Source: a virus (lineage: Duplodnaviria; Caudoviricetes). From it: DNA of 57,097 nucleotides. The notes beneath the pieces are model-generated. The model did not search any database, had not been told where the DNA came from, and saw nothing but the letters and a program-made list of their open reading frames with translations. Shown one piece after another: positions 26,518-50,121 of this stretch. Position 1 is the first letter of the stretch, and each line of letters starts with the position of its first letter. The stretch spans positions 1 to 57,097 of IMG/VR virus record IMGVR_UViG_3300031977_001254; one strand, written 5' to 3'. A program made the translations under genes and the position numbers.

Positions 26518-29500
26518 ATGGCTAGACTTATTCTTAATACTGGTATTGGGGCAAACGACGGGAGCGGTGATACGCTACGCGATGCAACCAATAAAATAAA
26601 CGCTAACTTTACCGAGCTATACAGTCTTGTATCGCTTGGTGATGGACTTACACCTGAAGCTCTATCTGCAATGATACTTGACACTGTAAATGAACAGTTG
26701 GTCAACGTCGATGTAGAAAATTCTCCGAGCGTGGTAACATTAGGCGACCGTATAACACAGCACGATTCAATCCTAACTCAATTGCAGCAAGAAGTCTCCT
26801 TACTTGACTCGGAAAATACTGCGCTTGATGTTATATTGTCAGACCAAGCTATCCAAGTCGCATCACTATCCGCACTACTAGATCTCAATGAAGATGCTTT
26901 GAGTGAAGTCGCAGCAAGAATAACTTCTCTTGAAAATACTGATGTATCGGTATCTGACTCTGATGTTCAAGCAGCAGTAGCAGTAGCGGTCGCAGAACTT
27001 AATGCTCGTCTTGCAGCTGACTCTGATGCGTTAACTGCTCTTGCCAATAACTTTAATCTGTTATCATCGCAAGCAACTCAGACGGATAATGAGGTTGAAT
27101 CTCTAGCTCAACAGATTAGTGTATTGGGCGCAGCGCTTGATGCGGTTGATTCTGATTACATTCTTGACGCAACGAATACAGCATTATCTGCTCTTACAAC
27201 TAGAATAAACCAAGATAGTGATTCACTTACAACCCTAGCCAACCAAGTGACTCAACTATCAACTCAGCTTAGTAATCTTGATATTAACGGAGATGCACTT
27301 ACCGCTACAGCTGACCTATTCAATCAAGTACATAGTCGTATTGACCTTGATAGCGCAAGATTAGATGTTGTCTCTCAAGACCTTACTACTTTACAATCTA
27401 CTCTTTCTACAGATATCGTAGACGCAACTGCAGCTTTACAAGGTACGTTGACCACACAAATAAGTGATGTTGATAGCGACTTAGCCATACTAGCACAAGA
27501 CTTAGTACAACTAGAAGCTGACCTACAAGGCGATATAACATCAGCGGTATCAACGGCTGAGTTACAGCTAAACACTCGTATAGATCAAGACAGTGCTGCC
27601 CTACAAGCAGTTTCACAACAACTTATTCAACTTGAAACTGATTTCCAATCATTGGATATTTCAGGTCAAGCAATTGCAGCAACATCATCTGCGGTTAATA
27701 ATTTACAAACTCAGATTACCGCTACTGATAGCGATGTAACCGCATTATCGCAAGACTTAACTGAACTGTCAAGTCAATTAGACACTTTAGATATAGCAGG
27801 CGAAGCAGTTGCTGCCACAGCCGACGCTATTAACAATCTACAGACTCAGATTACTGCGAGTGATAGTGGAATTGAAACTGTCGCGAATGATGTGACTACA
27901 TTAGAAGCATCATTAACTTCTACGCAAAATAACTTGACTTCTACGTCAAATGCGTTACAATCATTAGAGACTCGAGTAAATCAAGATAGTGATCGACTCA
28001 CTTCAGAATCTTCAAGGCTAACTCAACTAGAAACTGTGGTACAAGCCATTGATTCTGACTTCCTATTATCAGGAACTGCAGCTGCTCGTGATGAATTACG
28101 TACATTAATAGAGCAGGGTGATAGCGCGATTGCTTTACTTGCCGAAGATATTACGACTCTTGAAGTTGCTCTTGCTAACGCTGGACTAGATTCAGCATTC
28201 GTTTCAGACTTAGTTGCTTCCGCAGAACAAACATTAAATGCTCGTATAGATGCAACGGATAGTTCTTTATCAGCTGTATCTTCAGATGTGACTACACTCA
28301 CAGCAGACCTTGCTCAACTAGAAACTGACTTATCTGGCTTAGACTTATCAGGTATTGATGCGAATGCGACAGCGCTTAACGATCTTACTGCCCGTGTAGA
28401 TGTTACTGATAGTGGTTTATCATCACTTGCTTCGGACGTTACTAGCCTATCTGCTACGGTTGATGGATTAGATTTCTCTGGCATATCAGCTAATGCTACT
28501 GCAATTGATGCCTTAGAAGTATCTGTTTTAGAAACAGACAGCGCTCTCACAGCAGTTGCTCAAGACGTTACTCAACTAGCAATTGACTTGAATGACCTAG
28601 ATGGTCGTGCTGCAAGCGCTACTGCGTTGAACAACTTAACGACTCGTGTAACATCTACCGAATCATCTATTATATCAAACGCTTCTGATATTACTACGCT
28701 TCAGACTCAAGTAGACAACATTGATGTTGCAGGGGAAGCGGTTGCTGCTACAGCAGACGCAATTACTAATTTACAAACACAGATTACCGCTACTGATAGT
28801 GACTTATCAGTCGTCGCTTCGGATGTAACTCAATTATCAGCAGACCTATCGGGTATTGATCTATCTGGAATTACCGCAAACGCTGATGCTATAACATCAC
28901 TCACTACTCGTGTTGACGCTGACTCTGACTCTCTATCTGTAGTTGCTTCAGATGTTACTCAGCTACAAGCTGACTTGGGTGCAATTGACTTATCAGGTAT
29001 TGCTGCGAATGCTACAGCGCTTGAGTCTCTTGAGACTCGTGTTGATCAAGATAGCGATTCACTTTCTACAGTCGCAAGTCGTGTAACTTCTCTTGAAGCA
29101 ACATTAGCTGAAGGTTTGGACTCAGACGAGATTCTACAAGCAGTTGGCGGAGCGCTTGCTTCTCTAGAAACACGTGTTGATCAAGATAGTGATGCCCTTG
29201 TAATTCTATCCCAAGACGTTACTACATTAAGCGGTTCTTTAGTTGATGCACAAAACGATATCGTAGCGAACACTAATGCTCAAAATGTATTGAGTAATCG
29301 TATTACTGCTACTGATAGTGACTTGATTGCTGTTGCTTCGGACGTTACTCGTTTAGAAGCTGACCTTGGTTCAATTGACTTATCTGGCATCCAAGCAAAT
29401 GCTACTGCCATACAAGGTCTATCAACTACCGTCCAAGATAACATCAATGGTATCAGTACTGTATCGCAATCAGTTACTCAACTTGAAGCAGAGTTTGATG

Positions 29501-32500
29501 CGTTAGATATCTCAGGTATCCAAGCAAATGCCACCACATTGGCTGAACTTACTGCTCGAGTAGATCAAGATAGTGATTCTCTTAACGTATTAACCAGTGA
29601 TGTGGTACAATTATCAACAGAATTATCTGATCTTGATAGTAACACAGGTGCTTCTTTATTCGCATTATCTGATGCGGTATCAACTTTACAATCAAGTGTT
29701 TCACAAACAGATAGCTCTTTATCAATTGTTTCTTCAGAAGTAACTCAGTTAAGTGCTGATCTAGATGCAATTGACTTATCTGGAATTGCCTCAAACGCAA
29801 CTGCGATTCAGTCATTAACAACTAAGGTTCTACAAGATAGCGACCGTCTTACTTCTGTTGCTTCAGACGTGACTGAACTATCAGCTGAACTTGATGCGAT
29901 TGACCTATCTGGAATTACAGCAAATGCAACCGCAATAAGCTCATTAGAGACTTCGGTCCAAAGCACCGATAGTAGTTTAACTGCTCTTGCTTCAGATGTT
30001 ACTGCTATCTCGGCTGAACTTGATGGATTAGACTTATCTGGTATCGCTGCGAATGCTGATGCGTTAGAATCTTTAGATACTCGCGTAACATCTACTGAAG
30101 GAACTGTTACAAGTCAAGCAACCAAACTTGTTAACTTAGAAGCAGCAATTAACGCTGTTGACTTATCAGGTATTGATTCTAACTGGACTTCTATTACAGC
30201 AAACGCTGCTTCACTATCAGATTTAACATCTCGTGTTACTGCGACAGAGGGAAGTGTAACTTCTATATCTGAAGACGTAACTCAATTACAAACTGACTTA
30301 GCAAATGCTGATTCATCATTAGCAGTTACGCAGACAGCCCTTAATACATTAACCTCTCGTGTTGATTTAGATAGCGCAAGTTTAGTTTCTGTTCAATCCG
30401 ACATCACTTCACTCCAAGCAGACGTTACTGGACTGAATAGTTCAAAGGCTACAACAACGGCAGTTAATGCTTTAACCTCTCGTGTAACAGCTACTGAAGG
30501 TGATATTACTGCGGTACAAGGTGATGTTACAACCCTCGAATCTAGCGTAACCGCATTAGATGGAGCCAAAGCAAGTAATACGGCAGTGAACGCTTTAACA
30601 TCTCGTGTTACTGCTACTGAAGGTTCAATCACCTCTGCTCAATCGGACATTACTACATTACAGACCGACGTATCAAATGCTGAAGGAACATTAGCTACAC
30701 AAGGTACAGCGATTGCTGGATTACGTACAGATGTTGATGCTACTGATAGCGCTCTAAGTGTAGCTCAATCAGATATTACTACTCTTGAAACTTCGGTTAC
30801 TGGATTGAATAATTCTAAAGCTACCACAACTGCTGTCAATGCCCTGACTTCTCGTGTAACAGCTACTGAATCAGACATTACGGCGGTCCAAGGTGACATT
30901 ACTACGTTAGGGACTACTGTCGACGGCAAGGCGTCTACGACTGCCGTGAACGCTCTAACGACCCGTGTAACGGCTACTGAGGGCGAGATTAGTACAGTAC
31001 AGGGCGACTTAACATCTCTATCAACTACGGTTGATGGTAAAGCAAGTACAGCAGCACTCAGTAATCTAACAACTCGTGTTACTGCTACTGAAGGTTCAAT
31101 CACTTCTATCAATGAAGACATTGTTGATCTCGGTACTGATATTGATGGTAAGGCAAGTACAGGCGCATTGAGTGCGTTGACTGATCGTGTTGACGCTGAC
31201 AGCGATCGTCTAACAAGCACACAGTCTGACATTACTTCGCTTACTACCACTGTGAATGGTAAGGCATCTTCCTCTGCGGTAAGCGCATTAACAACTCGTA
31301 TGACTGCTGCTGAAGGTGAGATTGATACTGTTCAGTCAGATATCACCACGTTGACTAATAACGTAAATGGTAAAGCAAGCACAACTGCGTTGAATTCATT
31401 AACGACTCGTGTGACAGCTACTGAAGGTGATATTGAAGCTGTTCAAGAAGATGTTACACAACTAACAACTGACCTTGGTACTAAAGCTTCAACAACTGCC
31501 TTGAACACGTTATCAAATCGTGTAACTGAAACTGAAGGTGATATTACTGCGGTTCAGGGAGATATAACATCCCTGACTGCTACCGTCGGCACTAAAGCTT
31601 CAACCACAGCGTTGAATGCTTTACAACAACAAGTAACTTCGGAAGCTGGATTACTTGATACACTACAGACTGATGTTACTAACTTAACAAGTACTGTTGG
31701 CGGTAAGGCTTCAACAACTGCATTGAATACTCTGACGAACCGTGTAACGGCTACTGAGGGTGATATCTCTACGGTTCAATCTGACATCACTAGCTTAACA
31801 AGTACTGTTGGAACTAAAGCTTCAACTAGCGCATTAACATCCCTATCTAATACCGTAAATGATACTGAAACTGGTTTGTCTGCGGTTAATACTAAAGTCA
31901 CCAACTTGTCAACGACAGTTAGTGGTAAAGCAGATACTAGCGCATTAACTACTTTATCTAATACTGTGAATGATACTGAAACTGGATTATCCGCAGTTAA
32001 CACTAAATTGACCAATTTAAGTACAACGGTTGAAGGTAAAGCAACAACTGGAGCAGTAGAAACTTTATCTAATACCGTAAATGATACTGAAACTGGTTTG
32101 TCTGCGGTTAACACTAAACTGACAAGCTTAACTGCGACCGTCGGTACTAAAGCAGCAACTAGCGCATTAACAGCTCTATCTAATCAAATAAATGATAGCG
32201 AAACTGGACTTGAAGCTTTACAAGGTAGTATAACTTCTCTATCAGCTGACCTTGGCAATAAGGCTGAAGCTTCTGCTGTTACTGGGTTAACACAACGTGT
32301 AACTGCTACTGAAGGTAAACAGACCCAAGTAGAACAACGCCACTTTGTTAACTTAGATGCTAACGGACGTGTTGCTGGTACTGAATTATATAATGGAACT
32401 GGTGGTTCTGCGTTTAAAGTTGTAGCCGATAAATTCCAAATATTTAATGGAACTTCAGATGTTTCTCCGTTTACTGTAGCGAATGGTCAGATTAATATGA

Positions 32501-32631
32501 GCGGTGCTACGGTCACTGGCCAGCTAGATGTTAAGTCTGCTACGAGTGGTCAACGTATGGAAATTAACAACTCAACGATTACCATTTATGACGCGTCAGG
32601 AAACATTCGAGTAAAACTTGGAGATATCTAA
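26518..32631 (+). CDS. Giant coiled-coil tail fibre (2037 aa)
   Basis: N-terminal G..ANDGSGDTLR....KIN.NF.ELY attachment motif; about 1850 aa of heptad repeats; C-terminal beta domain (F.V.ADKF...PF.V, RVKLG). Confidence 0.8.
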   Translation: MARLILNTGIGANDGSGDTLRDATNKINANFTELYSLVSLGDGLTPEALSAMILDTVNEQLVNVDVENSPSVVTLGDRITQHDSILTQLQQEVSLLDSENTALDVILSDQAIQVASLSALLDLNEDALSEVAARITSLENTDVSVSDSDVQAAVAVAVAELNARLAADSDALTALANNFNLLSSQATQTDNEVESLAQQISVLGAALDAVDSDYILDATNTALSALTTRINQDSDSLTTLANQVTQLSTQLSNLDINGDALTATADLFNQVHSRIDLDSARLDVVSQDLTTLQSTLSTDIVDATAALQGTLTTQISDVDSDLAILAQDLVQLEADLQGDITSAVSTAELQLNTRIDQDSAALQAVSQQLIQLETDFQSLDISGQAIAATSSAVNNLQTQITATDSDVTALSQDLTELSSQLDTLDIAGEAVAATADAINNLQTQITASDSGIETVANDVTTLEASLTSTQNNLTSTSNALQSLETRVNQDSDRLTSESSRLTQLETVVQAIDSDFLLSGTAAARDELRTLIEQGDSAIALLAEDITTLEVALANAGLDSAFVSDLVASAEQTLNARIDATDSSLSAVSSDVTTLTADLAQLETDLSGLDLSGIDANATALNDLTARVDVTDSGLSSLASDVTSLSATVDGLDFSGISANATAIDALEVSVLETDSALTAVAQDVTQLAIDLNDLDGRAASATALNNLTTRVTSTESSIISNASDITTLQTQVDNIDVAGEAVAATADAITNLQTQITATDSDLSVVASDVTQLSADLSGIDLSGITANADAITSLTTRVDADSDSLSVVASDVTQLQADLGAIDLSGIAANATALESLETRVDQDSDSLSTVASRVTSLEATLAEGLDSDEILQAVGGALASLETRVDQDSDALVILSQDVTTLSGSLVDAQNDIVANTNAQNVLSNRITATDSDLIAVASDVTRLEADLGSIDLSGIQANATAIQGLSTTVQDNINGISTVSQSVTQLEAEFDALDISGIQANATTLAELTARVDQDSDSLNVLTSDVVQLSTELSDLDSNTGASLFALSDAVSTLQSSVSQTDSSLSIVSSEVTQLSADLDAIDLSGIASNATAIQSLTTKVLQDSDRLTSVASDVTELSAELDAIDLSGITANATAISSLETSVQSTDSSLTALASDVTAISAELDGLDLSGIAANADALESLDTRVTSTEGTVTSQATKLVNLEAAINAVDLSGIDSNWTSITANAASLSDLTSRVTATEGSVTSISEDVTQLQTDLANADSSLAVTQTALNTLTSRVDLDSASLVSVQSDITSLQADVTGLNSSKATTTAVNALTSRVTATEGDITAVQGDVTTLESSVTALDGAKASNTAVNALTSRVTATEGSITSAQSDITTLQTDVSNAEGTLATQGTAIAGLRTDVDATDSALSVAQSDITTLETSVTGLNNSKATTTAVNALTSRVTATESDITAVQGDITTLGTTVDGKASTTAVNALTTRVTATEGEISTVQGDLTSLSTTVDGKASTAALSNLTTRVTATEGSITSINEDIVDLGTDIDGKASTGALSALTDRVDADSDRLTSTQSDITSLTTTVNGKASSSAVSALTTRMTAAEGEIDTVQSDITTLTNNVNGKASTTALNSLTTRVTATEGDIEAVQEDVTQLTTDLGTKASTTALNTLSNRVTETEGDITAVQGDITSLTATVGTKASTTALNALQQQVTSEAGLLDTLQTDVTNLTSTVGGKASTTALNTLTNRVTATEGDISTVQSDITSLTSTVGTKASTSALTSLSNTVNDTETGLSAVNTKVTNLSTTVSGKADTSALTTLSNTVNDTETGLSAVNTKLTNLSTTVEGKATTGAVETLSNTVNDTETGLSAVNTKLTSLTATVGTKAATSALTALSNQINDSETGLEALQGSITSLSADLGNKAEASAVTGLTQRVTATEGKQTQVEQRHFVNLDANGRVAGTELYNGTGGSAFKVVADKFQIFNGTSDVSPFTVANGQINMSGATVTGQLDVKSATSGQRMEINNSTITIYDASGNIRVKLGDI
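30750..32330 (+). repeat. Degenerate ~36-39 aa coding repeats (KASTTALN.LT.RVTATEG.I..VQ.DIT.L)
   Basis: More than a dozen copies visible in the translation; boundaries approximate. Confidence 0.8.
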
Positions 32632-34023: not shown

Positions 34024-37000
34024 ATGAGCAATTTTACTAATAAAACATTTAAAGAAACATATCGTGATTCCTTCGATAAAACAAACGGCTATCATCGTGT
34101 ATTATTTAATGCAGGTAAGGCGCTACAAGCAAGAGAACTAAATGAGCTACAATCTATCTTCCATGAAGAACTTGCTCAATTTGGTCGTAACATCTTTAAA
34201 GAAGGCGCTATGGTCCATGCTGGTGGTTCTATGGTGGATAATTCTAAAGAATATATCCGACTACAACCAAGCAGTTTAGTACCAGACAATATTGTAGGTC
34301 AAGAATATCAAAACAGTCAAGGGATTAAATTCTTAATTGAAGAGTATCATCAAGCAACTGATACTGCACCCCAAACTCTCATTGTAAAATATACAGATAC
34401 AACAGCTGTATCTGATGCGTCAGAAGCACCACGTGTGTCTGCTAATCAGACATTAACTCCTGTGGGCGCAACTACATTCCCATTAACTGTAGCAAGCGAT
34501 GACGCTATCCCTGCAGTTGGAACGGGTACACTTATCTCAATTAGTGAAGGTGTATTTTTCGTAGATGGTCACTTCGTACAAGTAGAACAACAGTCAATAT
34601 ACATTGACATGTATAATTCAAAACCAACTGTTGACTTTGGTTTTAAAATAGTAGAAACTATAGTTACAGAAAGTGAAGATGATGGCTTGTATGATAACCA
34701 AGGAGAATTTCCAAATACTGCTGCTCCAGGTGCTCATAGATTTAAAATTGAACTTACTCCAGCAACAAGAGATCAAGTTCCAGAAGAAGAAAACTTCGTA
34801 TTTGTTGCTCGCATAGTTAACGGTGTTATTACTCGCGAAGTTGAAAGTAACGATGCATATAACATTATTAATGACTTGCTCGCTACCCGCACAAAAGAAG
34901 AATCTGGCGATTACGTAGCAAAAGAATTTAAAACTGTTGTTAATGAAAAAGACGATAGTAATTTAGATTTAGAAGTAACCCCTGGAACTGCTTACGTTGA
35001 TGGATATCGACTAGACTTTGGTACTACAAATTTAGATTTAGAAAAGGCTCGTGATACAGACAGTCTAAACAACGATAGCGTAATTGCTCAATATGGCAAC
35101 TATGTTGTTATCGATGAAGCATTAAGCACAGGTCTTTCTGAATTATCAACATTCGGTGAAGTAAGTTTAGGTGGTTCAAGTACTGCTAATGTAAGAGCTA
35201 TTGAAAATGTTGGCGGAGAATATAGACTATATCTCTTCAATATTAATATGGAAGTGGGTTCAAGCTTCAGAGACGTTACTACTATTACAGGTTCTAATGG
35301 TTCTGTTACAGTTAAGTCTTCAGGATTGTTAGGTGGTATCGATAATACATTATTGTTCCCATTATCTAATCCACGCCCTCAAGCGATAACTGACACTAAC
35401 TATACAGCACAACGTACAATTGAAGCATCGTCAGACGCATCGGGTGAAGTATTTATCTCTGAGACTGTTGACGCATCATACAACCCAGTTATATTTGAGG
35501 TTGGTGTTGGTCCTGCTACTGGTTGGTCTGTCTCTTCTAATAAAATAACAGGGTTATCTCCTTCAACAGCATATATTATAACATATTACTTTGCTGTTCC
35601 TTCTCCTGCAGTAAGATCAAAAGGTATGGCAACCGTAACCGAGAGTGTAACTCTAGGCTCTGGTGCTGCCCCTATAGATGGTCCAAACTTTACCCAAGGC
35701 GAAACTATGTGGCGTGTAGAAAACTCTACAGGCGCTGCGAGCATTGTCTGGAACGGAGAATTAATAACATCTGCGAGTTCAGCAAGTGGAATCACTACAC
35801 TAAATGCTGAGGGTTATCAATACACTCGCGGAAGCGCACAAACTCCAACGTTTACTCAATCATTTGCCCCTACATTTACAAATACAACATATGTAAACTT
35901 TGTGGGGAATTACACTAGGGATTTAAGCTTTACTGCCAGCAGAACAAGTAGCTATACGGCTTCTTATGCTGGAGAAAGGGTTCAATACTTTACTCGCTTT
36001 GGTGGTAATCCTAGAGAACCTATTTTCATAATAACTTCATCTGTGGTTCCTGGAACATTTACTGGAACACCATCAACCCGTGCGTTCACAAGTGACTTCA
36101 CTCGTTCATCTTCATATACTAGATCCCGTGCAAGTTCATACACTGGAACGTATACCCAAGGTGGAGATACTGGTACCAACGGAAACTTTACATATTATGA
36201 AGTTTCTCGTCAAGCATTGGCAAGTAGTACTTCAGACGCTTCTGTAATTGAACTTGATTATGCCGATGGTATTGAATTACTTTCTGTTTTAGATGATAGT
36301 GGTACTAACGTTACAGCTTCATTTGAATTTGATGGTGGTCAACGTGATAACTTCTATGGACCAATTAAGCTGAGACTTAAATCTGGTCTTACAGCTCAAG
36401 CAGGTTCTACATATACGGTACAATTCTCTCACTTCTATCATGAAGAAGGAGATTATTTCAGCGTGGAATCATATCCACAAGACTATGGTTTAATCCCATC
36501 ATATAAGAATTCCGCAGGTAATACAATCGCATTAACAGACGTTCTTGATTTCCGTCCAGTGGTTTTACCTTCTGGTGTAGATACTAACAGCATTAATGTA
36601 CTACCTAAGAATAAAAGTATTATTAGTGTAGACGCTACTTACTATCTACCACGTATCGATACTCTTGTTGCTAATACGTTAGACGCTAAAGGCAGAATTG
36701 GTACTGGCCGACTACAACTAATTCAAGGTGAGTCTTCATTAGACCCACGTCCACCTCAAATTCCAACTGGTTCATTACCATTATTCCAGTTTGATTTGAA
36801 TCCTTACACTGTAGACAAGACGGACTTAACAGTTACTAAGATTCCACACAAGCGTTTCACTATGAAAGATATCGCTAAGTTGGAAGAACGTGTTGAAGAA
36901 CTGTATGAATTAACGACTCTTAGTTTACTTGAAGCTGATACAGCTTCTCTTATGGTATTGGATGAGAATGGCAATAACCGCACTAAGTCTGGTTTTATTG

Positions 37001-39345
37001 CAGACAACTTTAACAGCTTAAACTTCTGTGATCTCAGCAATCCTGATTATCGCGCTTCAGTTGAGCCTGTTAATGGCGAACTAATGCCATCATTTAGAGA
37101 GAACTCAATTCGCTTATCAATGCGTGCTAATTCAACTGCACGTAAACAAGGCGATGTTGCTATATTACCATATACTAACGATTTAATGGCTTCTCAGTTA
37201 TTGGCGACTGGTAAGATGAATGTTAACCCATTTGCGGTTATCACTCAAACTGGCCACATGACACTATCACCTGCTTCAGATGAGTGGGTTGAAGTTCGTA
37301 AACTTCCAGATATTATGCAAAGCAATATCCGTAGAGTACGTACTGACAACAGAGCAACAACTAGAGGTAAACGTATTCGCACTCGTGTAGTTGAAAGAAC
37401 TATCCAAGAATTCTTGGGCGAGCAAGTTGTAGATGTTGAAGTAGTACCATTTATGCGTTCACGTGAAGTATTCTTCCGTGTTGAAGGTCTACGTCCTAAC
37501 ACTAATATGTTTGCTTTCTTTGGTAACAAACCAGTACAAGATTGGGTTCGTCAAGAAATTCGATTCAAGCACTTCTCTGACAATCCTAAAGAATATGGAA
37601 GCGAGTTTGCTAATGCTACCAGCCACCCAAGTGGAAACACTGAATTGGTAACTGATGAAAATGGTATGCTAATTGGTTCTTTCTTCTTACCAAATACCCC
37701 TAGCTTGTCATTCCGTACTGGACAGCAAGAATTTAAACTACTTGATATTGTAGTGAATGACGATGAGAATGCTATTGCTTCTTCACGTGCTATGTATGAA
37801 TCTGTAGGTCGTATTGACTCAGTACAACGTACAATTCGCTCAACCCGTATCGTAGAAAGTATTACAGAAAGATATGACCCATTAGCTCAAACGTTCTTTG
37901 TTGATCAGATTGAGAATCCAAATGGATTGTATCTATCTAAAGTAAGAATCTTCATGGAAAGTAAAGATGATACTATTCCTTTACAAGTACAAATTCGTCC
38001 TGTAGAAAATGGTATTCCGACTACACGTTTGGTTCCAGGTTCTTCTAAGTTTATATCTCCTTCTCTCATCAACGTAACACCGATGACGGATCAGACTGAT
38101 ATTGCTGACATCAGAACACAAGGCGGTACTGATGTTCAATTTGATGAACCAGTTTACTTATCTCCAGGCGAAGAATATGCAGTAGTACTATTAGCAGAGT
38201 CTGTTAAGTATAACGCATATGTTGCTGAAACTTATGAATTCATTCTTGGTCCAAACCGACGCGAAGGACGTGTTAACAAGCAACCAACTCTTGGTTCTTT
38301 ATTCTTATCGCAGAATGGTTCTACTTGGACAGCAGACCAAACTAAAGACTTGATGTTTGAATTATATAACGCATCGTTCTCGACTTCTGCTAACGTGGTT
38401 TTATCTAATGTAGAAGTTCCTAAGATTACTCTTGGTAATGATCCTATTTCAGTTGAACGTAGTAGTGCTTTGGTTCATATCGCGCATCAAGGACATGGAT
38501 TTAACGCTAATGATGAAGTTGAAATCTCAGGCGTACAAGGTACAATTGGTGGGGTAAGCGCATCAAGTATTAACGGCAATCATATTATCGCAAGTGTTTC
38601 TTGGGATGGTTATACAATTAATGCTGGCACAGTCGCTACTTCATCTGTATTAGGTGGTGGTGATCAGGTTGTAGTTAATGAACAAATTATGATTGATGAG
38701 TTGATCCCTAACATCGCTAACATCATTCCAAATGGAACAAGCATTACTGCTACAGTCCGCCAGACTTCTGGCGCTTCTTATGGCGGTAATCGTAACAATC
38801 CATTGTATAATAACTCATATTCTTCGGTTGCGTCTAAGCAGGTATTCCTGAATGACTCTAACCTAAATGATAAGCCAACTATTGTTGCTTCTCCTGAAGA
38901 TATGGAATTTGTTGTAACGTTGTCAACAAATGATACTAAAGTATCTCCTTTGATTGACCTTCAACGAACTTCTGTAATGACTATAGAAAATGTTATAGAT
39001 ATGAATGATGCTGCTCAACATATCACAACTCCAGTAATCTTAGATGAAGCTGCTGAAGGACTTAAAATATTGTTCTCTGCGCACCGTCCAAGTGATGCTC
39101 AGTTTGATGTGTATGTTAAAACTGCCACAGACGATTCATCTTTAGAGATCGCTGATTGGGTTAAAGTTGATATTGAAGCTGAAGTTCCAAGCGATGAAAG
39201 TCGTGATGTTGTACGTGAATACTCATACAGCATAGAAACTCTAGACCAATTTAGCATATTCCAAACTAAGCTTGTTATGAAATCAACTAACTCAAGTAAA
39301 GTTCCTATTGTTACTGATTTCAGAACTATAGCGCTGGCGGTATAA
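34024..39345 (+). CDS. Large baseplate/virion structural protein (DUF4815/VrlC-like) with a Tyr/Thr/Arg hairpin insert
   Basis: Y.D.FD...YHRVLF..G.ALQARELN.LQS, APGAHR, R...ESGDY, YYLPRID, KSGF..DNF, DPLAQTF, GSLF.SQNGSTW. Confidence 0.85.
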   Translation: MSNFTNKTFKETYRDSFDKTNGYHRVLFNAGKALQARELNELQSIFHEELAQFGRNIFKEGAMVHAGGSMVDNSKEYIRLQPSSLVPDNIVGQEYQNSQGIKFLIEEYHQATDTAPQTLIVKYTDTTAVSDASEAPRVSANQTLTPVGATTFPLTVASDDAIPAVGTGTLISISEGVFFVDGHFVQVEQQSIYIDMYNSKPTVDFGFKIVETIVTESEDDGLYDNQGEFPNTAAPGAHRFKIELTPATRDQVPEEENFVFVARIVNGVITREVESNDAYNIINDLLATRTKEESGDYVAKEFKTVVNEKDDSNLDLEVTPGTAYVDGYRLDFGTTNLDLEKARDTDSLNNDSVIAQYGNYVVIDEALSTGLSELSTFGEVSLGGSSTANVRAIENVGGEYRLYLFNINMEVGSSFRDVTTITGSNGSVTVKSSGLLGGIDNTLLFPLSNPRPQAITDTNYTAQRTIEASSDASGEVFISETVDASYNPVIFEVGVGPATGWSVSSNKITGLSPSTAYIITYYFAVPSPAVRSKGMATVTESVTLGSGAAPIDGPNFTQGETMWRVENSTGAASIVWNGELITSASSASGITTLNAEGYQYTRGSAQTPTFTQSFAPTFTNTTYVNFVGNYTRDLSFTASRTSSYTASYAGERVQYFTRFGGNPREPIFIITSSVVPGTFTGTPSTRAFTSDFTRSSSYTRSRASSYTGTYTQGGDTGTNGNFTYYEVSRQALASSTSDASVIELDYADGIELLSVLDDSGTNVTASFEFDGGQRDNFYGPIKLRLKSGLTAQAGSTYTVQFSHFYHEEGDYFSVESYPQDYGLIPSYKNSAGNTIALTDVLDFRPVVLPSGVDTNSINVLPKNKSIISVDATYYLPRIDTLVANTLDAKGRIGTGRLQLIQGESSLDPRPPQIPTGSLPLFQFDLNPYTVDKTDLTVTKIPHKRFTMKDIAKLEERVEELYELTTLSLLEADTASLMVLDENGNNRTKSGFIADNFNSLNFCDLSNPDYRASVEPVNGELMPSFRENSIRLSMRANSTARKQGDVAILPYTNDLMASQLLATGKMNVNPFAVITQTGHMTLSPASDEWVEVRKLPDIMQSNIRRVRTDNRATTRGKRIRTRVVERTIQEFLGEQVVDVEVVPFMRSREVFFRVEGLRPNTNMFAFFGNKPVQDWVRQEIRFKHFSDNPKEYGSEFANATSHPSGNTELVTDENGMLIGSFFLPNTPSLSFRTGQQEFKLLDIVVNDDENAIASSRAMYESVGRIDSVQRTIRSTRIVESITERYDPLAQTFFVDQIENPNGLYLSKVRIFMESKDDTIPLQVQIRPVENGIPTTRLVPGSSKFISPSLINVTPMTDQTDIADIRTQGGTDVQFDEPVYLSPGEEYAVVLLAESVKYNAYVAETYEFILGPNRREGRVNKQPTLGSLFLSQNGSTWTADQTKDLMFELYNASFSTSANVVLSNVEVPKITLGNDPISVERSSALVHIAHQGHGFNANDEVEISGVQGTIGGVSASSINGNHIIASVSWDGYTINAGTVATSSVLGGGDQVVVNEQIMIDELIPNIANIIPNGTSITATVRQTSGASYGGNRNNPLYNNSYSSVASKQVFLNDSNLNDKPTIVASPEDMEFVVTLSTNDTKVSPLIDLQRTSVMTIENVIDMNDAAQHITTPVILDEAAEGLKILFSAHRPSDAQFDVYVKTATDDSSLEIADWVKVDIEAEVPSDESRDVVREYSYSIETLDQFSIFQTKLVMKSTNSSKVPIVTDFRTIALAV

Positions 39346-43237: not shown

Positions 43238-43708
43238 ATGAGTAAAGTAGTAAAATATGTGGCTACTATTGAGGAAAGTACAGGTCGCATTATGAATGTA
43301 GAATTTCCTCAAGCAACATTAAAGCCAGAAGGTACAACGGATGGGATGACGGTAATCCATATTACTGAAGATAACATGCCAGAAGGGTTCATGAACATTG
43401 GGTGGAATCCAATGCTTCACTTTTGGGATGGTGAGACATTCATTCACGTAGGTACACCGCCTAATCGTCACGCTATATATAATGGTACAGATTGGGAATG
43501 GGATCAAGAGTTATTGGTGAGTGATGTTAGAACACATCGTGACCGTTTACTAGCTCAAAGCGATTGGACTCAAATGCCAGACGCTCCATTCACAGAAGAA
43601 GAAAAGACTGCTTGGCAAGCATATCGTCAAGAACTCAGAGACTTTATGTCTAGTCTACCAAATGAATTTGATTCTGTGCAATCATTATCATGGCCAATTC
43701 AACCATAG
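43238..43708 (+). CDS. Tail fibre assembly chaperone
   Basis: R..RDRLLAQSDWTQ.PD.P......W..YRQELRD...WP..P. Confidence 0.85.
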   Translation: MSKVVKYVATIEESTGRIMNVEFPQATLKPEGTTDGMTVIHITEDNMPEGFMNIGWNPMLHFWDGETFIHVGTPPNRHAIYNGTDWEWDQELLVSDVRTHRDRLLAQSDWTQMPDAPFTEEEKTAWQAYRQELRDFMSSLPNEFDSVQSLSWPIQP

Positions 43709-43941: not shown

Positions 43942-46900
43942 GTGTCAGCATCTAGTATCCCATTAAAAATACTAAATTCAGATGGTGACCTGAGGGAATT
44001 CACGCCAATAGAAGAAAACTATTTGGCGTATGCAGTCGGACAAGCATTATTGACACCAGATACTGGCTCATTAACTCTTGATCCTAGTGGCGTTGCGGTT
44101 GGTTCATATGTTGATACATATTTCAACGAATCACCTGGAACTCACCCTGCTAGTCAGATCACATCTGGATCAACTACTACGACCTTGCGTCAAGTGGCTG
44201 GACCAGCAAGTGAATCTGGTCAGAATATTCCTGTAGGTTACTACGAACAAGACCCAAATCCAGGCTTCTACGAAATGGTAGACGCGGATTTAACTAATCT
44301 CGCTAAACGTGTATTGGGTAATATGGTCGAAAATGACTATATTGGAACATACAGATTAGCATCTTCTTCTCCAGGTTCTGATTATTCTATTCACATTTCT
44401 AATGTGTTTTCAGATACCCGTGGCGACGGAGCATCAACTAACTATCACATCTATGTCCGTAATTCAATGGCATCTGTTGCAGCAACTCGTCCTGTTCGTA
44501 TTCGTTATGACGGTTCAAGCTTCGACGGCTTCCAAGAAATGACAGACGCTGAGATCCAACAAGTATTGGGTCAACGCATTAAAACATTAAGAGCAAGTGC
44601 AGGCGAGATTGGTTCATACCAGTTACGTTCTTCAGCACAAGGTGCTCCAATCGGTGGTGGTGTATGGAGAGCAGTTGGTACAGCTTTTAATACAAAATTA
44701 ACAACAGCACAGATTGACTATACTCGCACACGTAACTCTGCTTATGTTCAGACTCGCGTGTCGGCATATACTCGTAACCGTATTTCAACTTTTGTTGGTA
44801 CATACTCAAGAACAACAAGCAATGTATTCGCAGGTAACTACATTGGAAACTACTCACGTGGTTTTACTGGTAACTACTCACGTGGTTTTGCTGGTGAATA
44901 CACTGGTGATTTCATTGGCGTATATTCTCGTCTACGTTCTTCTGCATATTCTGCAAACTATACTCGCGAAAGAATTTCAACATATACTGGAACTTATTCA
45001 CGTACTCGTGTAAGCACATACGTTGGTAACTATGCTCGCGCATTTGCTGGCGAATACACTCGTGGGTTTGCTGGTAACTATACTGGTGAGTTTACTCGTA
45101 CTCGTATAAGCTCTTATGTTGGTGTATATGCGCGTACACGTACATCTACTTACTCAGGTAACTACTCAAGAAACTTTGCGGGCAACTATTCTCGTGGATT
45201 TACTGGTGAATACTCTCGTGCATATACTCGCGAACGTATCTCATCATACACAGGAACCTATTCGCGCACTCGTGTAAGTACATATGCTGGTAACTATTCT
45301 CGTGGATTTGCTGGCAACTATAGCCGTGGATTTGCTGGTAACTATAGCCGTGCATTTACTCGTAGCCGTGTATCAGCTTATGCTGGAACATATTCTAGAG
45401 ATCGTGTAAGTACATATGCTGGCAACTACGCTCGCAACTTTATAGGTAATTACTCACGTGCATTTGCTGGTAACTATAGCCGTGCATTTACTCGTGGTCG
45501 TGTTTCTACGTTTACTGGAACATATTCACGTACACGTAATTCATCTTATGCTGGTACTTACTCTCGTGGATTCACAGGCAACTACAGCCGTGCGTTCGGC
45601 GGTAACTATGCTCGTGCGTTTACACGTGGTCGCGTTTCTACCTTTACTGGTGAATATGCTCGTACTCGTAACTCAGCTTACTCAGGTACATATGCCCGTG
45701 GATTCGTAGGTAACTATGCTCGTGGATTCGTTGGTAACTACGCTCGTGCGTATACTCGTGGTCGTGTTTCTACTTTCAGTGGTACATATTCACGTACTCG
45801 CCCATCTAGCTACTCTGCAGACTACACGCGTAATCGTGTAAGCACATATGCTGGTACTTACTCACGTAACCGCGTTTCAGTTTATTCACGTAACCGTGTT
45901 TCTGCTTATGCAGGTACATATGCTCGTAACCGTGTAAGCTCTTATGCTGGTACATATTCACGTAACCGTGTATCATCTTACGCTGGTACTTACGTTAGAA
46001 CTCGTTCAAGCGCATACTCGCGCGTTCGCTTAACTGCGTTTGCTGCTGATTACACAGGCGTTTATACTCGTGCTCGCGCTTCAGTTTATACTCGTGCTCG
46101 TGTAAGTTCATACGCTGCTGATTACACAGGCGTTTACTCACGTAACCGTGTAAGCACATACGCCCGTACTCGTACTTCTGCTTATGCTGCTGACTACACT
46201 GGCACATATTCACGTAATCGTGTAAGTACATATGCTCGTACTCGTAGCTCTGCTTATGCTGGTACATATACAGGCGTTTATTCACGCAACCGTGTATCAA
46301 CATACTCGCGTGCTCGTACATCAGCTTATGCTCGTGACCGTGTAACGAACTTTGCTGGTAACTTTATCGGTAACTATTCACGTGGGTTTGCTGGTAACTA
46401 TTCTCGTGGATTCGTTGGTAACTATTCTCGTGGGTTTGCTGGTAACTATATCGGTAACTATGCAAGAACAAGTACTCGTACTTCTACGCGTGGTCGTGTT
46501 TCATCTTACGCTCGTACTCGTGTTACTAACTATGTTGGCGACTTTACTAGAAACAGACTTGTAACATATACTGGCGATTTCATCGGTAATTATGCAACTA
46601 CATTTACTGGTGACTTCGTAGGCAACTATGCTCGTAACTATGTTGGCGATTTTGCTGGTAACTTTACTGGTAATTATGCAACTACGTTTACTGGCGACTT
46701 TGTTGGTAACTATGCTCGTGGATACGCAGGCAACTATGCTGGTAACTTTGTTGGCGAATATGCCCGTACACGCGTTACTGACTATGCTGGCGATTTCGTA
46801 GGTAACTATGCAACTACATTTACTGGTGACTTCGTAGGTAACTATGCTCGTGGATATGCTGGTAACTTTGCTGGTAACTTTGTTGGTGAATATGCTCGTA

Positions 46901-49900
46901 CACGTGTTACTAACTCAACACGTACTTCTACTCGTACACTAGCTTATACTCGTACATTGTATTACACTGGTAACTATGCTCGCGCATTTGCTCGTACACG
47001 TGTTACTAACTATACAACTACACCTTCATACAGCCGTACTCGTGTAACAAACTATACAACCTCACCTTCGTATAGCCGTGAGCGTCCTTATTACCCAACG
47101 TACTCACGTGAACGTGGTTTCTACTACACTGGCAACTACTCACGCACATTGTATTATGCTGGCAACTATGCTCGTACATTGTATTACACAGGTAATTACG
47201 CTCGTACATTGTATTACACTGGCAACTATGCTCGTACATTGTATTACACAGGTAATTACGCTCGTACAGTTTACTATACTGGTAACTATGCTCGTACAGG
47301 TTATTATGCTGGTAACTATACTCGTCCGATAACTTCGACTAGAACTTCAACGAGAGTCTCTACTCGATATGGACCACCAATGGGTCCAGATCCAGGTGAT
47401 ATTGAGTTCTATACTAGCTACTATACTGGTAACTTCGTTGGAACTGGATATTATACGCGTACTTCAACTCGTTCATTAGTATACACTCGTGCACGCGGTA
47501 TTACTCCATCATATTCTCGTGACCGTGCTTACTATCCATCATATGCTCGTGACCGTGCTTACTATCCATCATATGCTCGTGACCGTGCTTACTATCCAGC
47601 ATATACTCGTAACCGCCCATACTACCCATCGTATGCTCGTGACCGTTTAAGCTACTATACTGGTAACTATGCGCGTACTTACTACTATACTGGTAACTAT
47701 GCTCGTACATTAGTATATACTGGTGACTTCGTAGGTAACTATGCTCGTACGAATGTCTATACTGGCGACTTCGTTGGTAACTATGCTCGCGCATACGCTG
47801 CTGATTATACTCGTACAGGTTATTATACTCGTACAGGTTACTACACTGGTGACTTCGTAGGCGACTTCGTAGGTAACTACGCTCGTACTTCAACGCGTAC
47901 ATCTACACGTACTCGTTACAGTGCATACGCTCGTACTCGTATCACAAACTATGTTGGTGACTTTACGCGTAACCGTGTAACAAACTTTGCTGGTAACTTC
48001 GTTGGTAACTACGCAAGAACTTCTACTAGAACTTCTACACGTACTCGTTACAGTGCATACGCTCGTACTCGTATCACAAACTATGTTGGTGACTTTACTC
48101 GAGTTTCTACACGTAACTCTACCCGTAATCGTTATAGCGCTTATGCTCGTACTCGTATTACCAACTATGTTGGTGACTTCACGCGCAACCGTACAGCAGG
48201 CTATGTTGGTGACTTTGTTGGTAACTATGCGACTACATTCGCAGGTAACTTCGTCGGTAACTATGCTAGAACGTTTGCTGGTGAATATGCAGGTAACTTT
48301 GTTGGCGAATACGCTCGTACTTCTACTCGTACTCGTTACAGCGCTTATGTCCGTACTCGTGTTTCAGCTTATGCTCGCAACCGTGTCTCAACATATGCTC
48401 GTGATCGTGTAACTAACTTTGCTGGCAACTTCGTAGGAAACTACGCAAGAACATTCACTGGTAACTATGCTCGTGGATTCGCTGGTGAGTACACTGGTAA
48501 CTACGTCGGCAACTATGCTCGCAACTATGTTGGTAACTATGCTCGTGGATTCTCTGGTCAGTATGTTGGTAACTACGTTGGCAACTATGCGCGCAACTAT
48601 GTTGGTAACTATGCTCGCGGTTTCTCTGGTCAATACACTGGTAACTACGTCGGCAACTATGCTCGTACATTCGGCGGTAACTACGCAAGAACATTTGCTG
48701 GTAATTACACTGGTAACTATGTCGGTAACTACACTGGCGACTTTACTGGTAACTATAGCCGTGGATTCGTAGGTGAGTACACTGGTACTTACTCAAGAGG
48801 ATTCTCTGGTCAGTATGCTGGCACATATAACCGTACATTTGTCGGTGAATACACTGGTACTTACTCTCGTGGATTCTCTGGTCAGTATACCCGTGGATTC
48901 TCTGGTCAATACGTAGGTAACTATGCTCGTGGATTTGCTGGTAACTATGTTGGTAACTATTCACGTAACTTCGTCGGTGAGTACACAGGCGCTTATGCTA
49001 CCACTTATACTGGTAACTATGCTCGTGGCTTTACTCGTACTCGTGTAAGTTCTTATGCTCGCACACGTACTTCGACATATGCTGGTAACTATTCACGTAA
49101 CTTTGCTGGCGAATATACTGGTGCGTATGCAACTACATACACTGGTAATTATTCTCGCAACTATACACGTTCACGCGTTTCTGCTTACGCTCGAGTTCGT
49201 TCTTCTGCTTACGCAGGTAACTACTCTCGTGACTTTGTAGGTGAATACACTGGTACATATGCGACAACATATACTGGCAACTACTCTCGCAACTATACAC
49301 GTTCACGTGTTTCTGCTTATGCTCGAGTTCGTCCGTCAACATATGCTGGTAACTATGCTAGAACGTTTACTGGTGAATACACTGGTACATATAACCGTGC
49401 CTTTGCTGGTAACTACTCACGTAATTACTCACGTAACCGCGTATCTGTATATGCTCGCACTCGTGTTTCTGCTTATGCAGGTACATATGCTCGTAACTTT
49501 GTAGGTGAATACACTGGTACTTACTCTCGCGGATTCGCAGGTAACTACTCACGTGACTTCACTCGCTTACGTATGTCAACTTACACTCGTTCACGTCCAT
49601 CTGCTTATGCAGGTACATATGCTCGTAACTTTGTAGGTGAATACACTGGTTACTATAGCCGTGGGTTTGCTGGTAACTATTCGCGTGACTTTACACGTAA
49701 CCGTATCAGCACATACTCACGTACTCGTTTCTCAACATATGCTGGCAACTATGCTCGCAACTTTGCTGGCGAATACACTGGAACTTATTCTCGTGGCTTC
49801 GCAGGTGATTATGTTGGTAACTATAGTCGTGGTTTTGCTGGTGAATATACTGGTAACTACACAAGCGTGTTCTCACGTACTCGTGTAAGTGCATATTCTC

Positions 49901-50121
49901 GTTTACGTACTTCAGCTTATAGTGCTGATTATACTCGTGATCGTGTATCAACTTATGTTGGTAACTACATTGGTGAATATGCTACTGGATACACTGGTAA
50001 TTATTCGCGCGACTTTATAGGAAACTATTCAAGAGCGTTTGTAGGTAACTACACTGGTATGACTATCCAACCTACATTTAACATTGTTGAAACATACACG
50101 TTATATGTAAGGGTTGCTTAA
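43942..50121 (+). CDS. Giant Tyr/Arg/Thr/Gly tetrapeptide-repeat virion protein (2059 aa), predicted self-complementary beta-hairpin fibre
   Basis: GTG start; ~259-aa non-repetitive N domain, ~1780-aa repeat region, 19-aa tail; late promoter; fibre-region context. Confidence 0.85.
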   Translation: MSASSIPLKILNSDGDLREFTPIEENYLAYAVGQALLTPDTGSLTLDPSGVAVGSYVDTYFNESPGTHPASQITSGSTTTTLRQVAGPASESGQNIPVGYYEQDPNPGFYEMVDADLTNLAKRVLGNMVENDYIGTYRLASSSPGSDYSIHISNVFSDTRGDGASTNYHIYVRNSMASVAATRPVRIRYDGSSFDGFQEMTDAEIQQVLGQRIKTLRASAGEIGSYQLRSSAQGAPIGGGVWRAVGTAFNTKLTTAQIDYTRTRNSAYVQTRVSAYTRNRISTFVGTYSRTTSNVFAGNYIGNYSRGFTGNYSRGFAGEYTGDFIGVYSRLRSSAYSANYTRERISTYTGTYSRTRVSTYVGNYARAFAGEYTRGFAGNYTGEFTRTRISSYVGVYARTRTSTYSGNYSRNFAGNYSRGFTGEYSRAYTRERISSYTGTYSRTRVSTYAGNYSRGFAGNYSRGFAGNYSRAFTRSRVSAYAGTYSRDRVSTYAGNYARNFIGNYSRAFAGNYSRAFTRGRVSTFTGTYSRTRNSSYAGTYSRGFTGNYSRAFGGNYARAFTRGRVSTFTGEYARTRNSAYSGTYARGFVGNYARGFVGNYARAYTRGRVSTFSGTYSRTRPSSYSADYTRNRVSTYAGTYSRNRVSVYSRNRVSAYAGTYARNRVSSYAGTYSRNRVSSYAGTYVRTRSSAYSRVRLTAFAADYTGVYTRARASVYTRARVSSYAADYTGVYSRNRVSTYARTRTSAYAADYTGTYSRNRVSTYARTRSSAYAGTYTGVYSRNRVSTYSRARTSAYARDRVTNFAGNFIGNYSRGFAGNYSRGFVGNYSRGFAGNYIGNYARTSTRTSTRGRVSSYARTRVTNYVGDFTRNRLVTYTGDFIGNYATTFTGDFVGNYARNYVGDFAGNFTGNYATTFTGDFVGNYARGYAGNYAGNFVGEYARTRVTDYAGDFVGNYATTFTGDFVGNYARGYAGNFAGNFVGEYARTRVTNSTRTSTRTLAYTRTLYYTGNYARAFARTRVTNYTTTPSYSRTRVTNYTTSPSYSRERPYYPTYSRERGFYYTGNYSRTLYYAGNYARTLYYTGNYARTLYYTGNYARTLYYTGNYARTVYYTGNYARTGYYAGNYTRPITSTRTSTRVSTRYGPPMGPDPGDIEFYTSYYTGNFVGTGYYTRTSTRSLVYTRARGITPSYSRDRAYYPSYARDRAYYPSYARDRAYYPAYTRNRPYYPSYARDRLSYYTGNYARTYYYTGNYARTLVYTGDFVGNYARTNVYTGDFVGNYARAYAADYTRTGYYTRTGYYTGDFVGDFVGNYARTSTRTSTRTRYSAYARTRITNYVGDFTRNRVTNFAGNFVGNYARTSTRTSTRTRYSAYARTRITNYVGDFTRVSTRNSTRNRYSAYARTRITNYVGDFTRNRTAGYVGDFVGNYATTFAGNFVGNYARTFAGEYAGNFVGEYARTSTRTRYSAYVRTRVSAYARNRVSTYARDRVTNFAGNFVGNYARTFTGNYARGFAGEYTGNYVGNYARNYVGNYARGFSGQYVGNYVGNYARNYVGNYARGFSGQYTGNYVGNYARTFGGNYARTFAGNYTGNYVGNYTGDFTGNYSRGFVGEYTGTYSRGFSGQYAGTYNRTFVGEYTGTYSRGFSGQYTRGFSGQYVGNYARGFAGNYVGNYSRNFVGEYTGAYATTYTGNYARGFTRTRVSSYARTRTSTYAGNYSRNFAGEYTGAYATTYTGNYSRNYTRSRVSAYARVRSSAYAGNYSRDFVGEYTGTYATTYTGNYSRNYTRSRVSAYARVRPSTYAGNYARTFTGEYTGTYNRAFAGNYSRNYSRNRVSVYARTRVSAYAGTYARNFVGEYTGTYSRGFAGNYSRDFTRLRMSTYTRSRPSAYAGTYARNFVGEYTGYYSRGFAGNYSRDFTRNRISTYSRTRFSTYAGNYARNFAGEYTGTYSRGFAGDYVGNYSRGFAGEYTGNYTSVFSRTRVSAYSRLRTSAYSADYTRDRVSTYVGNYIGEYATGYTGNYSRDFIGNYSRAFVGNYTGMTIQPTFNIVETYTLYVRVA
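44719..50061 (+). repeat. 12-nt (4-aa) periodic coding repeat with 44-aa and 10-aa super-repeats
   Basis: Units [YF]xG[NEDTQ], [YF]xRx, Rx[ST]x, STRx; near-exact 60-bp (47161-47268) and 30-bp (47521-47598) DNA repeats. Confidence 0.95.

Follow-up and report, generated by a model that had tools for sequence, protein, structure and literature searches.

A Giant Repeat Protein of a T4-Like Marine Phage Probably Forms a Fold-Back Fibre Whose Length Evolves by Matched Insertions and Deletions

Introduction

The tip of the long tail fibre protein gp37 of phage T4 is, by analogy, the nearest described design to that of the protein studied here, a putative fibre protein of 2059 amino acids (aa) encoded on the + strand at 43942..50121 of IMG/VR virus record IMGVR_UViG_3300031977_001254. 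The whole stretch analysed, 57,097 nucleotides (nt) of a virus record that is about 35% complete, is called the window below. The structure of the gp37 tip was reportedly described by Bartual et al. in 2010. According to PMC6957217, collar domain D10 consists of residues 811-881 plus 1010-1026 around the needle, which is held by seven iron ions bound by His. Like this tip (collar D10 and needle D11), the window protein would have a chain that runs out and back, a proximal domain made from two separated segments and a receptor-binding part in the middle of the sequence; the completion of one proximal domain by outgoing and returning segments was found at the level of a model (complex score 0.80). 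Unlike the gp37 needle, the shaft of the window protein contains no iron-binding His-x-His repeats, and the protein has no sequence or family relation to the gp37 or gp12 collar or needle (Pfam, PHROG, NCBIfam, PDB). The scales differ as well, the fold-back comprising about 130 residues in gp37 and 2 x 890 in the window protein, and gp37 is not known to have a tetrad repeat, an Arg/Gly rule or paired length variation.

In streptococcal antigen I/II, the A-region and the P-region of one chain pair into a long stalk that carries a variable head at its tip and both chain ends at its base. The two regions vary together in repeat number, and the stalk consists of an alpha helix and a polyproline helix wound around each other, with three to four long repeats. 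The window protein resembles it in having two different, paired repeat regions on one folded-back chain, but its repeats are four residues long, rich in Tyr, Gly and Arg and beta-like, and the arms in its family reach about 1000 residues. In the antiparallel coiled-coil arms of SMC and Rad50 proteins, too, outgoing and returning halves must match in length, and PMC5344682 describes SMC arm length as functionally tuned. These arms are helical coiled coils of conserved length, whereas the fibre is non-helical (Leu 0.8%, Lys 0) and varies freely in length between close relatives. Co-variation of arm lengths, the feature common to SMC/Rad50 and antigen I/II, was found in the window family, which thus works like these systems without being a member; coiled-coil or polyproline arm chemistry was not found in the shaft, judged by its composition and four-residue period. 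The comparison extends to RNA stem-loops, where antiparallel arms likewise obey a pairing rule, insertions persist only if matched and the structure can be read from covariation; here, however, the molecule is a protein and the rule is a looser one based on residue classes. Literature searches, with subscription journals and supplements outside their coverage, found nothing relevant on this family or design, and the design appears to be undescribed.

We report that the two arms of the window protein carry mirrored repeat arrays, that relatives differ by equal indels (insertions or deletions) at mirrored sites, and that residue statistics single out one pairing register. In our assessment the protein is likely to be a fold-back fibre of a T4-like marine phage, with its nearest named relative in the Kyanoviridae, whose two halves pair throughout and whose length evolves by matched indels.

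Results

Layout of the Window Protein

The gene starts with GTG and stops at 50119-50121; all features below lie on the same strand. The N-terminal base domain (aa 1-258; 43942..44715) is kept in all relatives. It is followed by the outgoing arm (aa 259-1143; 44716..47370), which counts 890 aa if taken to the axis at 1148, by a turn, GPPMGPDPGD (aa 1144-1153; 47371..47400), with the axis between G1148 and P1149 (nt 47385 and 47386), and by the returning arm (aa 1154-2038; 47401..50055). The C-terminal tail (aa 2039-2059; 50056..50118), whose last residues are ETYTLYVRVA, is kept in all complete relatives. From about aa 259 to 2038 the sequence is a four-residue repeat with Tyr or Phe (or Arg) at every fourth position, and the two arms would pair at i + j = 2297, where i and j are the residue numbers of the partners. 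The composition of this shaft (1780 aa) is extreme: Tyr 15.5%, Thr 13.9%, Arg 13.7%, Gly 11.7%, Pro 1.0%, Leu 0.8% and Lys 0%, with His, Cys and Trp absent as well. No HxH motif occurs in the whole 2059-aa protein, and its 1780-aa shaft has 0 His. The 2059-aa open reading frame (ORF) matched none of the families in Pfam, PHROG and NCBIfam and no PDB sequence at E<=0.01.

Equal and Mirrored Indels in Relatives

Relatives were gathered from IMG/VR, a protein database and metagenome contigs, which gave 40 unique complete proteins of 663-3347 aa, all with the N-terminal domain and a C-terminal end of the ...YTLYVRVA type. The arms of these relatives gain and lose repeats together, and length changes occur as matched indels at two distant sites of the gene. 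Compared with L004 (1,189 aa, 80% identity), the window protein has an extra 288, 48 and 116 aa in its first half and an extra 116, 48 and 288 aa in its second. The 48-aa blocks lie at aa 728-775 (46123..46266), missing from both L004 and L012, and at the partner position, aa 1517-1564 in the L004 alignment (48490..48633). The 116-aa blocks lie at aa 836-951 (46447..46794), missing from L004, and at aa 1343-1458 in the same alignment (47968..48315); the mirror of 836-951 is 1346-1461. Further comparisons repeat the pattern: 176, 48, 44 and 16 aa mirrored by 16, 44, 48 and 176 aa for the window protein and L012; 112, 56 and 10 by 10, 56 and 112 aa for L012 and L004; 196, 100, 24 and 10 by 10, 24, 100 and 196 aa for L003 and L004; and 120+56 by 176 aa for L005 and L007. 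L056 and L058, which are 97% identical, differ by 28 aa at 713-740 and 1061-1088, exact mirrors of each other. Equal changes in the two halves were also found for L063 and L057 (56 and 56, 24 and 24 aa), L023 and L033 (60 and 60 aa) and L037 and L032 (24 and 24 aa), and nearly equal ones in a distant subfamily (P0004 and P0007, 36 and 38 aa). In the shaft, indel lengths are multiples of 4 aa, and close to the tip they go in steps of 10 or 14 aa, as do the local, likewise mirrored, repeat periods.

Sixteen independent pairs of proteins were chosen greedily, each sequence being used once, with at least 70% identity and a length difference of at least 16 aa. Their half-by-half length changes correlate with r=0.94, and 10 of the 16 agree within 4 aa. 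When the count was confined to the shaft (indels more than 150 aa from the centre), the net changes of the two halves were identical in 10 of the 16 pairs and within 2 aa in 14, by reading of the table. Midpoint mapping between proteins had made six of the 16 pairs look unequal; three of these (L046/L065, L053/L054 and L051/L042) are artefacts of non-homologous tips, since each protein is symmetric about its own tip. In the pair formed by the window protein and L011, the halves differ by 9 aa near the centre. On a tree of the base domain, length changes on nearly every terminal fork, with half-spans from 187 to 999 aa; the window protein, at 890, has as its sister L004, at 454.

A preliminary description of this DNA, made from the sequence alone, had proposed that an expansion in one arm must be compensated in the other and had named homologs with unequal arms as the case that would speak against this. 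The equal mirrored indels, with 14 of 16 pairs within 2 aa, agree with the proposal, and homologs of 663-2282 aa keep their arms equal. The word "must" proved too strong in view of L070, L041 and the phage C48C1 homolog, which are exceptions treated in the Discussion. As far as the sequences tell, compensation appears to be made nearly always, and strictly so in the shaft. We infer that paired expansions could serve in this way to tune length.

Register and Residue Rule of the Two Arms

For each protein a register was predicted from terminal landmarks alone, as the sum (QGxP landmark + 27) + (YTLYVR landmark - 14). Arg density is anticorrelated at mirrored sites, and its minimum among 601 registers lies within 2 aa of the landmark register in 32 of 39 proteins. 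A residue-pair score placed the best of 201 registers at an offset of -2 to 0 in 37 of the 39 (663-2,282 aa), the two exceptions being the short proteins L052 and L064. When 35 proteins were pooled, only two of 2531 outgoing-arm Arg residues faced another Arg, an observed/expected ratio of 0.01 as compared with 1.1-1.8 in same-phase control registers. Arg-Gly pairs were enriched 2.4-2.8 times and Tyr-Tyr pairs 3.3 times over expectation, and mutual information reached 0.345 bits versus 0.15-0.20 in the controls. In the window protein itself, the 890 pairs at i + j = 2297 include 93 Arg-Gly pairs, where 28.6 are expected from counts, 124 aromatic-aromatic pairs, where 38.8 are expected, and only six Arg-Arg pairs, where 16.6 are expected. 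Two simpler measures were set aside: aromatic-aromatic mirrored counts alone gave no sharp register in 5 proteins, since all registers in phase score equally, and an initial mutual-information scan of the window protein put 2293 on top by a narrow margin only.

These sequence statistics point to a pairing rule in which Tyr or Phe stands opposite Tyr or Phe, Arg opposite Gly (or Phe or Ser), and Arg not opposite Arg. The Arg-rich xRxRVSxY stretches of one arm would thus face Gly-rich xGNYxxGF stretches of the other. Only shaft pairs at a distance of over 150 aa from the centre entered the derivation of 2297; the value nonetheless sets the axis at G1148/P1149 of GPPMGPDPGD, and a homologous GPDPG or GGDPG motif lies on the axis in L004 and L003. 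Four lines concur on the register: the mirrored indels give 2288-2294, the pairing rule and the turn motif both give 2297, and the base hairpin in the model gives 2298.

Repeat Arrays of the Two Arms

Repeat arrays were called with Tandem Repeats Finder. The outgoing arm contains an array of 44-aa (132-nt) super-repeats at aa 340-619 (44959..45797; about 6.4 units), detected with a period of 132/264 nt at 44959-45627, 45175-45428 and 45283-45797 with 73-75% matches. The returning arm contains one at about aa 1671-1952 (48952..49796; about 6.4 units), detected with the same periods at 48952-49650, 49203-49806 and 49329-49796, which jointly cover about aa 1671-1955. Both are missing from L004 as the 288-aa blocks mentioned above. 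Under i + j = 2297 the mirror of aa 340-619 is 1678-1957, so that the arrays occupy mirrored sites, as the preliminary description had stated with copy numbers correct to within a unit, and have equal span; this placement is far beyond chance in view of the register statistics. The two unit types differ (DNA identity between arms is only about 60%; families D6 and D10) and are complementary in Arg and Gly. That description had already called them complementary, and indeed xRxRVSxY stretches in one arm face xGNY/xxGF in the other. Mean unit identity hardly differs between the arrays (about 0.68 and 0.69), which says little.

Near the centre, the outgoing arm has seven 10-aa repeats of the YYTGNYARTL type (47122..47331; period 60 at 47125-47298 with 2.9 copies and 88% matches, period 30 at 47125-47325), and the returning arm has 10-aa repeats of the AYYPSYARDR and then the YYTGNYAR type (47497..47706; period 30 at 47505-47646, 4.7 copies, 88%). 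The former include a young 60-nt duplication (47152-47271), in which 47161-47214 matches the segment 60 nt downstream at 51 of 54 positions; the latter include an exact and likewise young 30-nt duplication (47527-47586), whose units 47527-47556 and 47557-47586 are identical. Near-exact duplications of 60 and 30 bp in mirrored central positions had been noted before, and their coordinates hold to within a unit: they correspond to aa 1074-1109 and 1194-1219, and the mirror of 1074-1109 is 1188-1223. No pair of DNA-level inverted repeats was found; the symmetry therefore resides in the protein and not in the DNA.

Within about 150 aa of the turn (47000-47800), and likewise in L003, L004 and L012, the four-residue period gives way to periods of 10 and 14 aa. 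These near-turn repeats carry YY doublets and Pro, and their periods are mirrored, with 14-aa repeats facing 14-aa and 10-aa facing 10-aa repeats. This suggests that the local structure near the tip may differ from that of the shaft.

Predicted Closure of the Base

In the AlphaFold2 model of full-length L004 (15-row alignment), residues 1-256 have a predicted local distance difference test score (pLDDT) of 70-90 and the last strand, 1175-1187, one of 60-85; this confident strand lies 900 residues beyond the folded domain. We modelled aa 1-265 and the last 45 aa as a complex, each given as a 25-row alignment, in three runs with three controls. The complex model scored 0.80 (runs 0.79-0.82) and the best control 0.00; a score of 0.80 is attained by 116 of 157 solved complexes as against 2 of 215 mismatched pairs, counts that are rough for the present purpose since our own alignments were used. 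Contact agreement between runs was at least 77% and the pLDDT of the partner at least 55. In the model, the 23 C-terminal residues dock onto the N-terminal domain and follow the shaft register, the tail strand lying antiparallel between strands 221-232 and 239-260. The best modelled contacts, 244:40, 243:41, 242:42 and 241:43, have i + j = 284, which is 2298 in full-length numbering, so that the shaft register would continue the base hairpin to within one residue. At model level, this supports a tail that binds the base domain as an inserted strand.

Fold matches of the base domain with the C-terminal strand span L004 residues 41..1189 and are of the MABP/beta-prism kind (Z 5.0-6.3). The best (3tow, 2qp2 and 8b6v) have Z 5.6-6.3 over 113-119 aligned residues at root mean square deviations of 3.9-4.5 Å. 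The best Z for models without a true match is typically 7-8; the likeness is therefore unproven, since the values fall within the background range of the tool. A Foldseek search against the PDB gave no match at E<=0.001.

Tips and Inserted Domains

In many relatives the axis is occupied by a globular tip of some 90 aa, and these tips are dissimilar between close relatives. The tip centre and the axis lie at 914 and 916 in L074, 856.5 and 857.5 in L054, 901.5 and 902.5 in L042, and 888 and 885 in L043. L053, L051 and L068 have central tips of about 90 aa unrelated to those of L054, L042, L074 and L041, with 76-85% identity overall. Unrelated tips in such close relatives look like tip swapping, which a receptor-binding module would be expected to undergo. 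A search for tips by local alignment with that of L043 scored clearly in 5 of 40 proteins, all close kin. In another relative, P0001 (1798 aa, ending at a contig edge), the base domain is interrupted by about 700 aa with precomputed Pfam hits PF14312 and PF13385; the base domain thus tolerates a large insertion at a second site.

Contigs of four metagenome runs were compared with the window gene; all break inside the arrays, so the comparison concerns each arm separately and the arms are not phased. A contig of the marine metagenome run X7 jumps 132 nt at 45329>45462, one unit of the outgoing arm, and a second, more diverged X7 contig jumps 144 nt in the returning arm at 48477>48622, corresponding to the 48-aa block that is also missing from L004. 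Copy-number variants of the gene therefore appear to coexist in nature.

Setting and Distribution of the Gene

The ORF sits in a T4-like baseplate/tail-fibre block, with baseplate wedge, tube cap and tail PHROGs upstream and fibre-like proteins downstream, a location found for genes of the virion-fibre type. The adjoining gene at 43238..43708 (+ strand) encodes a tail-fibre assembly chaperone (PF16778, E 2.6e-18; PHROG tail fibre assembly), which may instead serve the preceding fibre gene. Two other giant ORFs lie in the same module. One, at 26518-32631 (2037 aa), has 13 stretches matched to PHROG 2589 (tail protein), and the other, at 34024-39345 (1773 aa), matches PHROG 358 (unknown function) with 1102 bits. 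A single relative was found among 50,697 phage records. It belongs to phage C48C1 (Kyanoviridae), is 63.7% identical across the first 273 aa and is annotated as a 3347-aa "hypothetical protein"; the gene order around it is the same as in the window. The base-domain profile matches 435 clusters at 50% identity, making the family common in marine metagenomes, and the window's gene is present in 20 runs from 7 studies. Searches of the literature found neither a proteome nor a micrograph for phages with this gene.

Discussion

The observations above fit best with a chain that very probably extends outward over 890 residues, reverses direction and pairs with itself along its entire return. We infer that the arms touch as an antiparallel beta ribbon within one chain. 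A number of results weigh against this reading. AlphaFold2 gave the L004 shaft no fold (residues 257-1173, pLDDT about 25) and left aa 1000-1300 of the window protein unfolded (4-row alignment, mean pLDDT 28.9). At i + j = 2297 the window protein does have six Arg-Arg pairs. Five of the six (426/1871, 470/1827, 514/1783, 558/1739 and 602/1695) are spaced by exactly 44 aa in both arms, one per super-repeat pair, so the two arrays are in phase unit for unit. This spacing fits amplification from one module that may already have been paired, with no order of events proven. Local scans within the super-repeat zone picked out no single register, and the similarity order among the six outgoing units is not mirrored by that among the six returning ones: a test for a shared duplication order in the two arrays was not significant (Mantel-type r=0.16, with 27.5% of 720 permutations equal or better). 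Across the wider family, represented at 50% identity, the best register lies within -3..+1 of the landmark register in only 26 of 76 complete proteins, about 2 being expected by chance; most of the remaining proteins are Arg-poor or have large central domains.

Proteins with unequal arms belong on the same side of the balance. In the C48C1 homolog (OQ984149.1 141011-151054; L002:612-10655), five globular domains of about 130-340 aa are inserted into the returning arm and none into the outgoing one, and an exact 75-aa tandem duplication in the returning arm (aa 2011-2085 and 2086-2160) has no partner; it covers the end of one insert and 34 tetrad residues. The placeable parts of this returning arm are the innermost 431 aa and the most proximal 69 aa, the short outer pieces fitting many sites equally. 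The inner hairpin pairs N-terminal residues 864-1294 with C-terminal residues 1370-1800 at i + j = 2664, which puts the axis, 1332, at the centre of the tip domain (1296-1368), and the most proximal returning piece pairs with residues 265-333. The other 599 residues of the outgoing arm lie opposite 581-610 tetrad residues of the returning arm, which the inserts divide into pieces. From this pairing around the inserts it follows that globular domains can bulge from one arm with the register kept. In L070, 94% identical to L043, a single 44-aa unit (L043 aa 613-656) is missing, and from the outgoing arm alone; a direct repeat of about 45 nt, at a spacing of 132 nt, flanks this unit, and both natural slippage and assembly collapse are possible causes. 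In L041 (L041:3909-8567), the two arms measure about 539 and 625 aa, and the tip lies some 43 aa away from the axis. The landmark register still holds for the shaft of this protein; the arms disagree only near the tip, and the inner returning arm has extra 10- to 14-aa repeats.

The arms could instead pair between chains, in an antiparallel dimer or by strand exchange within a trimer, under the same constraint on mirrored lengths. Phage fibres are usually trimers, and sequence statistics tell which residues are opposed but not to which chain each belongs. We nevertheless regard pairing between chains as improbable: a Pro/Gly turn or a variable globular tip lies exactly on the axis, where a head-to-tail dimer would need neither, the tail docks on the base domain in the shaft register in the complex model, and base domains at both ends of a fibre fit baseplate attachment poorly. 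A second alternative dispenses with physical contact and has the arrays co-vary through a DNA process that copies both, or through swapping of whole symmetric cassettes. The tip regions do look swapped between close relatives, and the length differences on almost every terminal fork of the base-domain tree make frequent recombination likely. But the arrays are only about 60% identical as DNA and form no inverted repeats, and paired indels flank shaft segments that are still 80-97% identical and are thus not single cassette swaps. An Arg-Arg observed/expected ratio of 0.01 in one register only has no explanation at the DNA level, and co-variation without pairing seems to us very unlikely. We find it hardly credible that low-complexity repeats and the global alignment of repetitive sequence have produced the mirrored pattern artificially. 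Indel boundaries within repeats are indeed ambiguous by several residues, and the simple aromatic counts and the first mutual-information scan lacked a sharp register; indel lengths, however, are independent of boundary placement and match exactly in mirrored order, and the best of 201 registers equals that given by independent terminal landmarks in 37 of 39 proteins.

For the fold-back fibre we propose the following mechanism. The chain would leave the 258-aa base domain as the 890-residue outgoing arm, turn at GPPMG/PDPGD and return antiparallel over 890 residues, and its last 20 or so residues would insert as a strand into the base domain and clamp the base, a docking seen so far in models. 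A single gap-free register, i + j = 2297, would continue the hairpin of the base domain itself. With the register counted from a closed base, a repeat gained or lost in one arm would shift everything distal to it. Replication slippage or unequal recombination in either tandem array would produce such unpaired variants, in which the distal part, shifted by a multiple of 4 aa, would bring Arg to meet Arg. Selection would presumably remove them unless the mirrored array changes equally or the excess can bulge, near the tip or beside an inserted domain. Fibre length would then evolve through coupled indels in two tandem arrays separated by about 3-4 kb. An extended strand measures about 0.33 nm per residue; 890 residues would reach about 290 nm if the arms were fully extended, and any coiling would shorten this. 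Fibre length presumably matters for reaching the host.

On balance we lean towards describing the protein as a "stem-loop" made of protein: a two-armed beta ribbon of one chain, with up to about 1000 residues per arm (about 0.3 micrometre extended), a register held in a residue code, a base clamped by the last strand, modular length and a swappable tip, together forming a rapidly evolvable organ of reach and host recognition. If this model holds, it represents an undescribed way to build a very long, thin virus fibre, whose internal contacts can be read from covariation, as in RNA, and it would explain the exactly central turns in giant repetitive ORFs of marine T4-like phages. It yields a testable rule for the evolution of fibre length, paired indels in multiples of four residues, and offers a self-pairing beta scaffold that could be designed. 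It also implies a caution about short-read assemblies of such genes, in which the repeats of one arm can be collapsed. With 435 clusters at 50% identity and the window's gene in 20 runs from 7 studies, the fibre probably matters for the adsorption of abundant phages. The code, if real, would make the shaft modular, and phages would tune its length by compensatory indels and swap its tip.

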